Shown here one piece after another: positions 1-60,588 of a DNA stretch of 64,000 nucleotides; within the stretch, counting starts at the first letter, position 1, and every line of letters begins with the position of its first letter. The notes beneath the pieces were generated by a model, which made no database searches, had not been told where the DNA came from, and worked only from the letters and a program-made list of their open reading frames with translations. The stretch is taken from NCBI GenBank assembly GCA_963514005.1, contig OY740785.1:103168001-103232000 (forward strand), given 5' to 3'. A program made the position numbers and the translations under genes. The stretch comes from Raja brachyura (lineage: Eukaryota).

Positions 1-431
1 GTCTCGGAAGTCTGCAGACAATTCCTTTGTCTTCATGGCTTGGTTTTTGCACCAACATGCATTGTCAACTGTGGGGCCTTATACAGATAGGTGTGTGCCT
101 TTCCAGATCATGTCCAATCACTTTAATTTAACACTGGTGGACTCGAAACAAGTTGTAGAAATATCTCAACGATAATCAAAGTAAACAGGATGAACCAAAG
201 CTCAATTTTGAATGTCATAGCAAAGGGTCTGAATACTTCTGTCAATGTGATATTTCAGTACTTTATTTTTAATGACTTTGCAAAAATTTCTAAACACCTA
301 TTTTCGCCTTTTTATTATGGGGCATTATGTGTAGATTGATGTTGAAAAAAAAAAATCCATTTTAGAATAAGGCTGTAACGTAACAAAATGTGGAAAAAGT
401 GAAGGGGTCTGAATACTTCCTGAATGCACTG
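1..431 (-). mobile_element. Tc1/mariner DNA transposon, left end (IR/DR-type TIR), runs off the window start
   Basis: Ends ...gaatacttcctgaatgcactg followed by TA (432-433). Internal repeat of gggtctgaatactt. Reverse complement matches the 5' end of the Tc1 at 60193, including the transposase start (ATG at 36-34). Confidence 0.9.
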
Positions 432-2944: not shown

Positions 2945-3034
2945 GTTACACAAAAAGCTGGAGAAACTCAGCGGGTGCAGCAGCATCTAAGGAGCGAAGG
3001 AGATAGGCGACATTTCGGGTAGAGACCCTTCTTC
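2945..3034 (-). mobile_element. Short Penelope-derived insert with a damaged hammerhead ribozyme motif
   Basis: Near-identical to 27901-27993 and 46752-46841. Imperfect 17-bp TSD agattgaaaagacgagg / agactaaaaagactagg. Confidence 0.8.
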
Positions 3035-12336: not shown

Positions 12337-13459
12337 ATCTCCAAGATTGCGAATGACACAAAGCTGGGTGGCAAGTGTGAGCTGCGAGGAGGATGCTATG
12401 AGGCTGCAGGTTGACTTGGATAAGTTGGGTGAGTGGGCAGGTGCATGGCAGATGTAGATAAATGTGAGGTTATCCACTTTGGTGTAAGAAGGAACTGCAG
12501 ATGCTGGTTTAAACCAAAGATAGACACGGCCCCATAGCTGAAGTGTCCACGTCGCGGGGTTGGAAACTGAAAGTATCCTGAGCTAATTCTGCTACCAACA
12601 TCATCTATTGCAACAAGTGATGACTCCCACTGATTGTCACCGGAAGCTTGCATACTTTTCAGGACAGACGATGACAGCAATGTTAACATTTGAAACATGG
12701 ACATGAAAGAAGACACAAGAAGCTGGAGTAACTCAGTGGGACAGGCAGCATGGATGGTGTCAGATTAGGAAAAGGGGAGGTGCAACGAGACCTGGGTGTC
12801 CTTGTACATCAGTCACTGAAAGTAAGCATGCAGGTACAGCAGGCAGTGAAGAAAGCAAATGGCATGTTGTCTTTCAAAAAAAGAGGATTTGAGTATAGGA
12901 CCTCGGAAGTCCTACTGCAGTTGTACAGAGCCCAGGTGAGACCACACCTGGAGTATTGTGTGCAATTTTGGTCTCAGATTTGAAGAAAGACACTGTTGCT
13001 ATTGAGGGAGCACAGCACAGGTTCGCCAGGTTAATTCCCGAGATGGCGGGACTGACATATGATGAAAGAATGGATCGACTGGGTTATATTCATTGGAATT
13101 TATGATAAGAGGGGATCTTATAGAAACATGTCAAATTCTTAAGGGTTAGATGCAGGAAAAAAATTCCCGACGTTGGGGGAGTCCAGAACCAGGGGGTCAC
13201 AGTTTAAGAATAAGGGGTAAGCCATTTAGGACCGAGATGAGGAAAAACGTTTTCACTGCCACAGAAAGCGGTGGAGGCCAATTCACTGGATGTTTTCAAG
13301 AGAGAGTTAGTTACAGCTCTGAAGGCGAATGGAATCAAGAGATATGGGGAGAAAGCAGGAACAAGGTACTGATTTTCAGCAACGATCATGTCGAATGGCA
13401 GTGCTGGCTCGAAGGGTCGAAAGGCCAACTCCTGCACCTATTTTCAATGTTTCTATGTA
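12337..13459 (+). mobile_element. CR1 LINE 3' fragment interrupted by a Penelope terminal piece (~12483-12750)
   Basis: KIANDTKLGG, QVRPHLEYCVQFW and a CR1 tail. The insert begins gtaagaaggaactgcagatgctgg. Confidence 0.85.
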
Positions 13460-22427: not shown

Positions 22428-22790
22428 TAGTTTGTTTATTGTCACGTACAGAGGTACAGTGAAAAGCTTTTGTGTGCCATCCAGTCAATGAAAAGAATAT
22501 AAATGATTACAATCAAGTCACCCACAGTGTGCAGATACAGGATACAGAGAATACCATTTACTGCAAGATAAAGTCCAGTAAAGTCCAATTAAAAATAGAC
22601 TCAAGGTCTCCAATGAGTGAGATGGTAGATAGACACAAAATGCTGGAATATCTCTGGAGTAAAGGAAAAGGTGCTGTTTCAGATCAAGACCCTTCCTCAG
22701 ATGGTAGGTCAGGACCACTCTCTAGTTGGTGATAGTATGGTTTAGTTGCCCATTAACAATTGGAAAGAAACTGTCCCTAAATGTGAATAA
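22428..22790 (-). mobile_element. Rex1/Babar-like LINE 3' end with a Penelope insert at 22629-22700
   Basis: gtttattgtcacg...gaggtacagtgaaaagc tail. The insert has a 9-bp TSD agatggtag. Confidence 0.65.
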
Positions 22791-24759: not shown

Positions 24760-24904
24760 TGTCTGAAAAATAATTCTGAAATGTCACCTATTCCTTTTCT
24801 CCAGAGATGCTGCCTGTCCCACTGAATTACTCCAGTTTTTTGTGTCTGTCCAGCATTACTCCAGCATCTTTGGTATAAAGCAGCATTTGTAGTCCCTTCC
24901 TACA
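24760..24904 (+). mobile_element. Penelope terminal repeat with a degenerate hammerhead
   Basis: ctgaaaaa...gaaatgtcacctattcc...cagagatgctgcctgtcccactgaattactccag. Confidence 0.7.
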
Positions 24905-27334: not shown

Positions 27335-27900
27335 GATTGTAGCAGTGGAGTGAAAGGTGGAAAATGATTTTATTGCTATTCCACTGAAGGCCAGCCCATC
27401 AGCAACCTAGGTCCTGGGCTATGGAAAACCCTCCTAACTGTTCAATAAAAAATTCAAGCAGAAATAAAAGAATAAAACTAGAAATGAAAGCAGTTTTTGG
27501 ATGGTGGGAAAATAATTGCAGATGACACGGGAATACAAAAGGAGAAGCTAGTTTTAAGTCATCAATGTAAATCTTTTAGCAAATCATTTTTTGTACTTTT
27601 CGTTGCTCTTTCGTTGATTTTCAGCCTGTTATATTATTCTGATAAAGCATTGATTATTTATTTTTAAAGCAGATATAACTTTACTGCTATAATATTAATA
27701 TATTTTCAAAACATCTTAAAGGTTAAGCAAAAAACAAACTACTAGAGAAACCTAGTGGGTCAGGCATCATCTATGGAGGCAAAAAGGACAAATAACATTT
27801 TGGATCGGGACTCCATTTCAGATAGTGGAGGAGGAGGGAGATAGCTGGTAGAAAGAGCTGAAGGGAAGAGGTGGGGAGGAAGCTAGCAAGTGAAAGGTGG

Positions 27901-27993
27901 GTACACAAAAGGCTGGAGAAACTCAGCGGGTGCAGCAGCATCTAAGGAGCGAAGGAGATAGGCAACGTTTCGGGCCGAAACCCTTCTTCAGAC
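27901..27993 (-). ncRNA. 93-bp Penelope-derived insert with a minimal hammerhead ribozyme core (27964-27991)
   Basis: Minus strand reads CTGAAGA A GGGT TTCG GCCC GAAAC GTT. 12-bp TSD agtgaaaggtgg / agtgagaggtgg. Inserted in an older Penelope remnant (~27725-28050). Confidence 0.8.
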
Positions 27994-28377
27994 AGTGAGA
28001 GGTGGATCCAGTTGAGGAGGAGTTGATTGATAAATGACTCAGTTGGGGGAGAGAAGATTGAAGATAGGATCTAAGGTTGGAAGTGGAGAAGCTGAAACCC
28101 AATATTGTATTGTTTGCTTTCTCTTTTGCTGTAATCATGTAATTGTATGATTTGCCTGGATAGCGCACACAACAAAGTATGTGACAATAATAAACCACTA
28201 CCAATGCAACACCACATTTTAATATGGGAAATCTATAGTTTCTAACATATGGAAAACCATTCCTAATGGACATTCAACAAAGTTATTGGTATTTTATAAT
28301 GAAGGCAGTCCAGTTGAAATTGTATACATGATATTGACAACATGTAACATAATAAAGATGTTAGCAATGTTAAAGTC

Positions 28378-28814: not shown

Positions 28815-29455
28815 ACCTGGGGCCTGGTTGCTTACCATTTTAATTCCTCTTCCCCTCAGCGTCAACCATTGCCAGAGTGAGGGCAGGCACAAACAAAAAG
28901 AGCTGCACCTCATATTCCATTTGAGTAGCTTACAAACCAATGTTATGAACAATGAATTCTCCAATTTCAGGTAATATCATCTCCCTCTCTATCCAACTCT
29001 CCAATCTTCCACCCTTGCACCTTTCGTTATAACTCCCCAGCCTCATCACAATTCCTTTCCGCTCCTCCACGTGCCCTACCTACTCCCCCTCCACCAAAAT
29101 TCTCTATCCACTATTCCCCCCATGATTCTACATTTCACTTCCTTCCTATCAGACTCCACCATTTTCACTCTTTTGGTTTATCCACTAGCTGATGATTATT
29201 ATCTCTACCCATCTCTCCCTCATCTAACACATCTGCTACTCTATCGCTGCACACCCGGCTCCATCTATCATTTGCTCATTCTTACCTCACCCTTTCCCTT
29301 CACCACTTTCTACCACCTTTCTCCTCCGCTCCATCAGTCTGAAGAAGGATCCCAATCGTCATCGGTCCATTTACCTCCACAGATGTTCCCTGAAAGGCTG
29401 AGTTGTTGCAGCACTTCATTCTTTGCTCAAAATTCCAGCATCTGCAGTCTCATGC
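28815..29455 (+). mobile_element. Old Penelope element 3' end (GIY-YIG C-terminus, UTR, degenerate hammerhead at ~29339)
   Basis: VAYHFNS...ELHLIFHLSSLQTNVMNNEFSNFR*, a C/T-rich UTR, ctgaagaagg and an ...attccagcatctgcagt terminus. Confidence 0.75.
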
Positions 29456-38510: not shown

Positions 38511-38630
38511 GTACACAAAAGGCTGGAGAAACTCAGCGGGTGCAGCAGCATCTAAGGAGCGAAGGAGATAGGCGACGTTTCGGGTCGAGACCCTTCTTCA
38601 GACTGGTTAGGGATCAGGGAAATGAGAGAT
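38511..38630 (-). ncRNA. Penelope terminal segment with a minimal hammerhead core (38574-38601)
   Basis: Minus strand reads CTGAAGA A GGGT CTCG ACCC GAAAC GTC. Confidence 0.8.
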
Positions 38631-45295: not shown

Positions 45296-47036
45296 GGAAG
45301 GTGACTGACAGATTCCACTTCTTACTATCCGGAACTGCCATTCCCGCCATCACTGAGCAACCTGTCAAGAGTTTGGGGAAGGTTTTTGACGAAACTCTGA
45401 AAGACTCTGCCGCCATTCAAAAGTCCATCAAAGACCTTGAAGCCTGGCTCACCAAAGTCGACACGTCAGGTCTGCCAGGCAGATTCAAGGCCTGGATTGA
45501 TCAGCATTCCATCTTGTCCCGAGTCCTGTGGCCTCTGCTGGTTTACGCTGTTCCATTGACCACAGTTGAGTCCCTCGAAAGGAAGATCAGCAGCTTTCTC
45601 CGCAGGTGGCTTGGCCTTCCACGCAGACTCAACAGTGCAGCACTGTATGGGACCAGCAGCTCCCATTCAGTGGCCTCACGGAAAAGTCCATGGTGGCGCG
45701 AACAAGAGAAGCTCTGCAGTACAGGGACTCCAGGGACCAGGAGGTGTCATCGGCTAGCATCAGGGAGGAAATAGAGAGCGGAGAAAGCAGTGGAGGTGGC
45801 AGAGTCACGCCTAAGGCTAAAGGCATTGGCAGAGCAGGATTGGGATACTTCCCTAAAACACCGGTTGGCAAGGCCCGGAGCAAGGAGAGACGCCATCTAA
45901 TCCAGGAAGAGGTCCGAGCAGGTGTGGAGGAAGAGTGGGGGAGCAGTACGCTGGGGCTCAGGCAGCAGGGAGTGTGGACAAGGTGGGGAAGCATACCGCA
46001 GCACAGGATTACCTGGTCAAACATCATGCAGGCAGACTTCCAGCACGTCCGGTTCCTTGTCCAAGCTGTCTACGATGTCCTACCAAGCCCTGCAAACGTC
46101 CACATCTGAGGCAAGAGCGAGACACCTTCCTGCCCACTTTGCTCTGGAAAAGGATCATTAGAACATCTCCTCAGCAGCTGCCCAAAGTCTCTTGGGGAAG
46201 GTTGCTATCGGTGGCGCCATGACCAGGTGCTCAAGGTGGTTGCTGAGAGCATAGCTACTGCCTTCGGTAAAATGAAACACCACCACTACCCACCCTAAAA
46301 AAATCGATCACTTTTGGAGCTGGAGAGAAGCACCGACCACAACCAAAAACAAGGACGGGCCTCCTCTACATAGCCACTGACTGGGCAAACAGCTGAGATT
46401 TCCACAGCACATCACAGCAACATCACTCCGGCCAGACATGATCATCACCTCCGAAGTGACAAAACAGCTGATCATTCTGGAGCTGACAGTGCCCTGGGAA
46501 GAGCGTATTCAAGAGACTAATGAGAGGAAACGGACAAAGTACCAGGAACTGGTGGAGATGTGCCAGGACAGAGGCTGGAAGACATACTATGAGCCCATAG
46601 AGGTGGGCTGTAGAGGCTTTGCAGGACGCTCACTCTGCAAAGTCCTCAACCAGTTGGGCATTACACGGCTGGCAAAGAAGAGGTGCTCTTTTCACAAAGT
46701 GAATGTCTGTGCATTCAATCCGCAAGCGAAGCTGCAGAGAAAGCCACTAGGGGTACGAAAGGCTGGAGAAACTCAGTGGGTGCAGCAGCATCTAAGGAGC
46801 GAAGGAGATAGGCGACGTTTCGGGTCGAGACCCTTCTTCAGCCACTAGGTGGCTTTGGATTAAGAGGGCTGATCCGTGGGCTGTTGCTGCTGGGACGCAA
46901 GTTGGGGCCTGATCAACCTCGGCTGGATCGCCTGGGCGATGGGTGTCTGATGTTGTGAGACCCTAAACTGCCTATGACCCCAGATCACATCACTGAGAAT
47001 TCGTCCCAGCGCATCTAGAAGATGTATCTTTCACAC
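45296..47036 (+). mobile_element. HERO-clade (R2-group, REL endonuclease) non-LTR retrotransposon, 5'-truncated
   Basis: KAWIDQHSILSRVLWPLL, CCHC knuckle CPLC..EHLLSSC, RWRHDQVL, RPDM..ILELTVPWEE, PIEVGCRGF. Confidence 0.88.
46752..46841 (-). ncRNA. ~90-bp Penelope-derived insert with a minimal hammerhead core (46814-46841)
   Basis: CTGAAGA A GGGT CTCG ACCC GAAAC GTC. Perfect 10-bp TSD agccactagg (46742-46751, 46840-46849). Confidence 0.85.
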
Positions 47037-51879: not shown

Positions 51880-52027
51880 GTATAAGAAGGAACTGCTGAT
51901 GCTGGTTTAAACCGAAGATAGAGGCAAAAAGCTGGACTAACTCAGCGGGACAGACAGCATCCCTGGGAAGAAGGAATGGGTGACGTTTCCCATTCTTTCT
52001 CTCCTGAGATGCTGTCTGTCCCGCTGA
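51880..52027 (-). mobile_element. Penelope terminal repeat ending in a fold-back inversion
   Basis: aagaaggaactgctgatgctgg terminus; 51942-52027 is self-complementary. Confidence 0.75.
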
Positions 52028-59832: not shown

Positions 59833-60588
59833 CAAAAATGCTAAGTTACTCAGCAGGTCAGGCTGTATCTCTGGAGAAGCGGAATAGGTGATATTTCGGG
59901 TTGGAACTTTGTTTTCTTCAATCCATGTGCTTTCCCTTCATGCCAACTACCTCAGGTGAATGATGAAATAAGATCAGGTCTCTCATCTGTAATATTGATG
60001 ACACAAACCCACTATTTGGTCTATTGTGCCCCTGTGGATAGTATCATTTTCATTTGAAGTTACGCTAATCATAATTTCATTTCAGTTTCACATTAATCCA
60101 GAGCAGATTTATTAAGCTTCCCCCCTCTCATGCCCATCATTGCTGCACTCAAATCGCAAAGAGTAACTGGATTCAAACTCAATGCGCATATACAGTACAT
60201 TCAGTAAGTATTCAGACCCCTTCACTTTTTCCACATTTTGTTACGTTCCAGCCTTATTCTAAATTGGATTTTTTTAAAAATCATCAATCTACGCACAATA
60301 CCTCATAATAAAAGAAGCAAAAACAGGTGTTTAGAAATTTTTGCAAAGTAATTAAAAAGAAATAAGTGAAATATCTAATTTACATAAGTATTCAGACCCT
60401 TTGCTATGACACTCAAAATTGAGCTTAGGTTAATACTGTTTCCATTGATTATTCCTGAGATGTTTCTACAACTTGAGTGTAGTCCACAAGTGGTAAATTA
60501 AATTGATTGTAAATGAATTGGAAAGGTACACACCTGTCTGTGTAAGGTCCCACAGTTGACAGCGTATGTCAAGGCAAAAAAACTAGCC

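Follow-up and report, generated by a model that had tools for sequence, protein, structure and literature searches.

The 90-bp hammerhead sequence that recurs as short inserts in the window, by which we mean the whole 64-kb stretch of DNA analysed, is the pLTR core of a ~4-kb EN+ Penelope-like element (PLE). These inserts are best explained as dead-end end-pieces of the terminal repeat of that PLE, and not as the separate ribozyme element that an earlier note on this DNA had envisaged. They end at a common 5′ edge that likely marks the capped start of the element RNA, and their discrete 5′ end is better explained by the RNA 5′ end of the full element than by an RNA cycle of their own of the retrozyme kind.

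Short inserts in the window and their parent element

Five stretches of the window match each other far above chance (repeat family D11) and consist, on the minus strand, of a hammerhead core followed by ~62 nt (Table 1). As the earlier note had reported, the minus-strand core CTGAAGA-stem II-GAAACGT(C/T) is present in all five, and it is intact, with an extra A before stem II, in three of them (46814-46841, 38574-38601 and 27964-27991). The focal insert sits in the end of an unrelated LINE-like ORF, the target being restored once the insert is removed; its TSD is exact over 10/10 positions and also takes in the last 2 nt of the element. TSDs had been claimed for four inserts. They were found for the focal copy (10 bp), for the copy at 27901 (27889-27900 vs 27994-28005, 11/12 matching) and for that at 22629 (22620-22628 and 22699-22707, 9 bp exact, the insert ending at 22698 and not at 22700), whereas the 17-bp direct repeat attributed to the copy at 2945 was not recovered: the best direct match between its flanks is 9/17, and the left flank recurs on the right side in inverted orientation, though imperfectly (11/17). 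The copies at 2945 and 22629 had both been called degenerate; the former lacks the CT of CTGA, and the latter belongs to a different, more decayed subfamily. The copy at 38511, previously regarded as a slightly longer member of the same class, runs instead ~29 nt beyond the common edge into the 3′ UTR, and its flanks show no TSD longer than 5 nt.

Table 1. Coordinates of the inserts, their parts and related loci. Positions refer to the window unless a locus is named.
Feature	Position	Strand	Remarks
Focal short PLE insert	46752..46841	-	5′ end at the C of CTGA; 3′ end at S1; no tail
Left TSD of focal insert, 10 bp	46742..46751	.	Identical to 46840-46849
Right TSD of focal insert	46840..46849	.	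Identical to 46742-46751
Minimal type I hammerhead core, focal copy	46814..46841	-	CUGAAGA, extra A, 4-bp stem II with tetraloop, GAAA-CG-UC
Predicted cleavage position, focal copy	after 46814	-	By comparison with PMC4209133 (partial text)
Short PLE insert	27901..27993	-	5′ end at -2 (GT); S1 end; stem II variant with U.G pair and UUCG loop
Longer PLE copy	38511..38630 (end approximate)	-	Crosses the common 5′ edge; S1 end
Short PLE insert	2945..3034	-	5′ end within core, CT of CTGA missing
Decayed short insert, related subfamily	22629..22698	-	Internal deletion; TSD-bounded
311-/328-bp tandem loci	L354 (G000:C1:162.94 Mb), L338; L355, L344, L381-L384 (G000:C22:20.18 Mb)		Joint recurs at 2 and 3 loci
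Intact 1,192-aa ORF	L233:1389-4967 (G000:C1:105.18 Mb)		RVT_1 and GIY-YIG

Several other features were seen in the window. The host of the focal insert, at ~45900-46900 (+), is the decayed end of a restriction-like-endonuclease LINE ORF, which we take to be HERO-like, and a second insertion of ~40 bp lies near 46684 in the same remnant. Older remnants of related pLTR subfamilies occur at 24763-24845 (+), 27734-27822, 29337-29412, 51925-52027, 59833-59921 and 12713-12751, the one at 51925-52027 being a palindromic head-to-head stub with a weak mir-3127 match. The stretch 12516-12593 (+) matches the CPEB3 HDV-like ribozyme family with 31.6 bits (E 1.7e-4), below the gathering score of 35.

In the 2.70-Gb animal genome, whose repeats resemble those of sharks and rays, the 34-mer directly 3′ of the ribozyme has 58,471 exact matches and a 35-mer of the core 30,305, followed by the UTR/core joint (10,851), the RT (1,523), the tail-to-ORF joint (689) and the 5′ part of the ORF near its start (198); mutated copies escape such exact patterns, and the figures should not be read as copy numbers. 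Of the first 30 core loci listed, eight can be followed upstream through a 3′ UTR to an RT/GIY-YIG frame. Walking upstream through long copies showed the hammerhead unit both before and after the ORF, with the order core, S1, 34-35-nt tail, S2 and ORF start on the upstream side. The four regions fetched contained seamless 3.9-4.0-kb tandems and one intact ORF of 1,192 aa, which in Pfam matches RVT_1 (E 2.5e-4) and GIY-YIG (E 1.7e-3), neither match reaching the curated cut-off. In translation, the element shows the motifs YIDD and YIGET as well as a CX4CxxC linker, of the CX2-5CxxC form that precedes GIY-YIG and that is described as absent in Penelope/Poseidon (PMC8557442, partial text). The linker, which is the sole basis of the clade assignment, points to an element of the Neptune/Nematis type. 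The element also has the pLTR, partial tandems, inverted copies and a tail within the 30-40-nt range. The N-terminal part of the ORF is long and proline/serine-rich, and its start codon, ~165 nt past the common edge, overlaps a possible splice donor (AG|GT).

Hammerhead motif and map of insert ends

The motif had been ascribed to the minimal hammerheads of Penelope-type elements, and this attribution holds: it combines the conserved core, an extra base before stem II, the G10.1-C11.1 pair and a palindromic stem III, and its core, extra A and palindromic CG fit the published motif (PMC4209133, partial text). Among 58 motifs collected from 458 kb with a search pattern that itself required the core, so that core conservation is built in, the extra A is present in all 58, the stem II pairs are intact in 55-56 and CG occupies 15.2-16.2 in 48; none of the 58 carries a compensatory double change in stem II. 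The earlier remark that stem I has only ~2 bp and that an extra A precedes stem II was likewise correct. Helix I of the element has 2 bp (G-C, U.G), against the 4-5 bp that characterize PLE hammerheads, and no longer partner lies within 60 nt upstream of the core; in the focal copy helix I is absent, because the upstream bases are target-derived GG. Free folding with 3-60 nt of upstream sequence did not predict the hammerhead as the minimum-energy structure, and Rfam covariance models, proposed in the earlier note as a check and run on the whole window, returned no hammerhead family at E≤1.

Insert ends were mapped with a 34-mer downstream of the cleavage site as anchor (≤3 mismatches), which keeps copies whose 5′ end lies at the ribozyme or within it. 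The sample comprised 543 kb from C1:0.17-3.64 Mb (3.5 Mb of one contig), and of 133 anchors with enough flank four in segmental duplicates were dropped, leaving 129. Taking the C of CTGA as zero and upstream positions as negative, 58 of the 92 copies that reach the 5′ edge of the core end at 0..-8, where 0.9 would be expected at the upstream rate; the hazard per base is 0.070 in this interval vs 0.0008-0.0011 upstream, and ends are most frequent at -3, on the A of the AGT that directly precedes the core. The earlier suspicion that the inserts are not random truncations was thus well founded, and random truncation as the source of the short copies, or stubs, is rejected by this pile-up. Further copies start inside the unit (17/109 at +1..+8 and 20/129 at +9..+45), and 34 of the 129 pass the common edge; among the latter, 6/34 end in the next 232 nt, 12/28 in the following 399 nt, and 16 extend past -640. 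The genome-wide exact-match counts for the UTR/core joint (10,851), the RT (1,523) and the ORF start (198) follow the trend of this map.

At the other side, 80 of the 129 copies end at S1, 46 at S2, 34-35 nt away, and 3 elsewhere. Outside the window, an exact TSD of at least 8 nt (median 12) bounds 25 of 59 stand-alone short copies, against 0.3 (maximum 2) with shuffled flanks, so that the TSDs are not due to chance. As many as 40 of the 129 anchors form 20 head-to-head pairs, 18 of them S1+S2 and two S1 with a longer arm; S1+S1 or S2+S2 combinations are absent from these 20. We also observed a few tail-to-tail pairs enclosing a short target stretch. In assembled contigs of three of the four runs examined out of 24 listed, the three being from two other organisms, 53, 89 and 72 loose ends lie at -4; the RNA status of these runs was guessed and they were available as contigs only, so they cannot show transcript starts and document the junction in relatives only. 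As the core is common to other subfamilies, the step in contig depth was left unused.

Two readings of the stubs can be judged directly from this map. If stubs were copies of the 3′ product of hammerhead self-cleavage, they should begin at the predicted cleavage site (+27..+29), as 3 of the 129 copies do, but most stubs begin 28-31 nt upstream of the cut and include the core in full, and ends are as frequent around the site (7/126 within 9 nt) as in the 15 nt that follow (10/119). The end map refutes this product as the main stub source, and the probability that we leave to it is negligible; the few copies beginning at the site are compatible with rare cleavage by the hammerhead. Alternatively, the edge could be set by RNA processing, either at a splice acceptor, given the pyrimidine tract and the CAG that precedes TCTGA, or at a site of another type, the template being a processed RNA. 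The 3′ UTR before the core is indeed pyrimidine-rich and ends in CAG, and the intron of D. virilis Penelope terminates at the 5′ end of helix I (PMC4209133, partial text). Nevertheless, 34 of the 58 edge copies reach -3 or further and so retain the AG itself, and the 5′ flanks of the solo copies differ in 51/51 cases, which implies that there is no common upstream exon; we regard such processing as very improbable.

Extra bases, jumps and the copying of the element

The edge, CCAGTCT, resembles an initiator motif. Genome-wide, the core is preceded by G-AGT in 2,356 cases vs T-AGT in 785, the local background being 1.2-1.5 to 1. Flanks were parsed for 69/70 G loci and 50/50 T loci, the first listed of each set; inverted joints make up 32 of the 69 G loci and account for much of the G excess. 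Solo copies with a TSD show a single untemplated base between TSD and AGT in 6/17 G vs 1/24 T cases (Fisher p=0.014), and the base before AGT belongs to the target in 2/17 G vs 12/24 T cases, in what is a small TSD-resolved sample (17 G, 24 T). An extra G of this kind has been interpreted as a copied cap in L1/SVA (PMC4859970, partial text).

The tail continues into the ORF at 53 places, and at 40 of them the sequence rejoins the element within 25 nt; 19 of these jumps involve positions -8..+8 and 21 positions in the 3′ UTR or endonuclease, from which it follows that the RT also disengages away from any RNA end. The pattern fits cDNA that reaches the RNA end and then jumps, internal departures also occurring. 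The ORF arms of the jumps (L324-L373) stop in clusters at +198..208 (14/40), +225..231 and +241..268 from the core, the last with separate groups at about +241..246 and +256..268. These clusters might reflect RNA 3′ ends under protection, additional sites of priming or the footprint of a protein. Some joints contain short A runs. We also considered a fixed circle formed by back-splicing at the AG|GT close to the ORF start and rejected it, since the 40 joints vary and none lies at that site among the joints listed.

From the end map, the extra base and the jumps taken together, we consider it probable that stubs arise by internal priming, in which the RT starts within the 5′ pLTR copy of a capped element RNA that has not been cleaved and comes off at the 5′ terminus of this template. 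Transcription would start at AGT, a putative Pol II start, so that the hammerhead would occupy the first ~31 nt of the element RNA. The protein would bind just downstream of S2, where ORF-start RNA follows the 5′ pLTR copy only; because this copy alone precedes the protein-bound ORF-start RNA, priming at the 5′ pLTR would be the default and would yield stubs. Priming within the first ~95 or ~130 nt would generate a cDNA of 95 or 130 nt, whose synthesis stops where the capped template ends and which is then attached to the target, the extra G being a presumed copy of the cap. Some run-off cDNAs would jump to another RNA position, which would yield partial tandems, and others would be linked to a second cDNA started at the alternative site, which would yield head-to-head pairs; the hammerhead would mostly be copied uncut. 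Longer copies would need a second route, such as a tandem transcript, strand transfer or a circle, because about a quarter of the copies (34/129) pass the edge. Internal RT starts at two sites that define the tail are known for the Anolis PAc element, in which the first 172 nt of ORF RNA are required and uncut RNA is the dominant template (PMC11167929), and the transcription start of D. virilis Penelope lies inside the pLTR, with an internal promoter (PMC2377424, partial text). Speaking against a run-off, the 5′ ends spread over 0..-7 and do not lie at one base, with the 17/109 at +1..+8 in addition.

That spread is part of the case for the main rival, in which the RT would prime on the 3′ pLTR of a long RNA and stall or fall off at the 5′ edge of a folded or protein-bound hammerhead, stubs being truncations at a structural hot spot. 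Such a stop would account for ends smeared over ~16 nt, for an edge that coincides with the 5′ strand of helix I, for jumps that depart from 3′ UTR positions too and for the 34/129 copies that read through. However, stem II has just 4 bp in a hammerhead that is not the predicted minimum-energy fold, the stop lies beyond the hairpin and not at its base, and the single extra G is left unexplained. We thus judge a structural stop unlikely, and run-off at a capped RNA end remains our preferred reading.

Retrozymes and other known systems

The earlier note had interpreted the 90-mer as a stand-alone, retrozyme-like element with its own RNA. It would then be an independent SINE- or retrozyme-like unit mobilised in trans by the PLE protein, in keeping with its discrete size, its TSDs and its very high copy number, with the internal promoters of Penelope, from which solo copies could be transcribed (PMC2377424, partial text), and with the proposal that retrozymes derive from pLTRs (bioRxiv 10.64898/2026.07.22.740005, partial text). 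Yet the unit is not found in tandem arrays with a hammerhead in each repeat: just 52 head-to-tail joints from S1 to the core within 25 nt exist genome-wide, a count that covers S1-ended joints, and their spacers are all different, vs the 58,471 matches of the 34-mer. Nor does it form a self-propagating lineage, as no repeated short-only haplotype appears among 57 short and 28 long copies, a small sample in which the common haplotypes are shared. In addition, a single ribozyme is unable to cut out a monomer, 3 of 129 copies start at the cleavage site, and the unit stops at the two RT start sites, without the downstream RNA that the PLE tested in vitro requires (PMC11167929). An independent element is accordingly highly unlikely in our view, and we return to stubs as by-products of copying the full PLE.

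Tandem derivatives of another kind do exist. A 311-bp unit, with one joint, has 4 matches at 2 loci and a 328-bp unit 7 matches at 3 loci, each on a separate contig. Complete units show differences of 1-7 nt and contain 53-70 nt of UTR, the ribozyme, the tail with both RT sites and ORF-start RNA, and the arrays, each bounded by one TSD, hold up to 4 ribozymes. Judged by their sequence, these rare arrays fit the tandem retrozyme definition and are candidate newly born retrozymes. A more tentative proposal, to which we give distinctly less weight than to the internal priming from which it extends, is that all PLE copying rounds might begin with a strong-stop cDNA like that of retroviruses, which would be primed by the target at the 5′ pLTR, run off the capped end and be transferred to the 3′ pLTR or another RNA position. 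Stubs would then be failed transfers, head-to-head pairs two strong-stop cDNAs (S1 and S2), and the tandem retrozymes of 311 bp (2 loci) and 328 bp (3 loci) would result from cDNAs wrongly transferred to fixed points that lie 200-270 nt inside the RNA.

How PLEs are copied, how their pLTRs are regenerated and how their hammerheads are used are questions that this family addresses with a genome-wide record of sharp coordinates. The record comprises a predicted site of transcription initiation, two positions at which the RT starts, each used by one arm of the inverted pairs, jumps with clustered landing points, and a ribozyme that served uncut as template. The family also separates look-alikes, namely solitary dead stubs and rare tandem derivatives that are perhaps retrozymes at birth.

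The closest experimental counterpart is PAc, the Poseidon element of Anolis (PMC11167929), which shares with the present one two 3′ ends one tail apart, a hammerhead copied uncut and the use of both target strands. It nevertheless belongs to a different clade and its ORF starts inside the hammerhead, whereas the long ORF starts here ~165 nt after the common edge; moreover, that study maps RT starts and not the 5′ ends of inserts. In D. virilis Penelope, by contrast, the hammerhead follows a 5′ exon and an intron, ~120 nt from the transcription start, and is therefore not at the RNA start (PMC2377424 and PMC4209133, partial texts).

With PLE minimal hammerheads (PMC4209133, partial text) the motif shares the CUGANGA and GAAA..UH core, the unpaired base before stem II, the G-C closing pair and the palindromic CG at 15.2-16.2, as well as its occurrence mostly as single dispersed motifs from truncated PLEs, for which a dimer is predicted to be needed. 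Stem II has 4 bp here vs 7-8 in the Schistosoma examples, and the 2-bp helix I resembles that of the D. virilis variant. Animal non-LTR retrozymes (PMC7229834 and bioRxiv 10.64898/2026.07.22.740005, partial texts) have in common with the 90-mer a type I hammerhead, an origin from PLE pLTRs, the lack of coding capacity and long TSDs, but they consist of tandem 150-450-bp units with a ribozyme each and a circular RNA, whereas the 90-mer is solitary.

The element class, the tail, the inverted pLTRs and the minimal hammerhead are already published; our literature search, with subscription journals outside its coverage, found no paper on a 5′ pile-up or a strong-stop-like product in PLEs. EN+ PLEs of the Neptune/Nematis type (PMC8557442 and PMC3846280, partial texts) show the same RT followed by a C-terminal GIY-YIG with a CX4CxxC linker and internal cysteines, the same pLTR, to which a tail of 34-35 nt may be added, partial tandems, inverted head-to-head copies in which one arm bears the tail, and TSDs of ~8-18 bp. 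What distinguishes the present family from the EN+ PLE insertions described in those texts is that about half of all its insertions share one 5′ edge.
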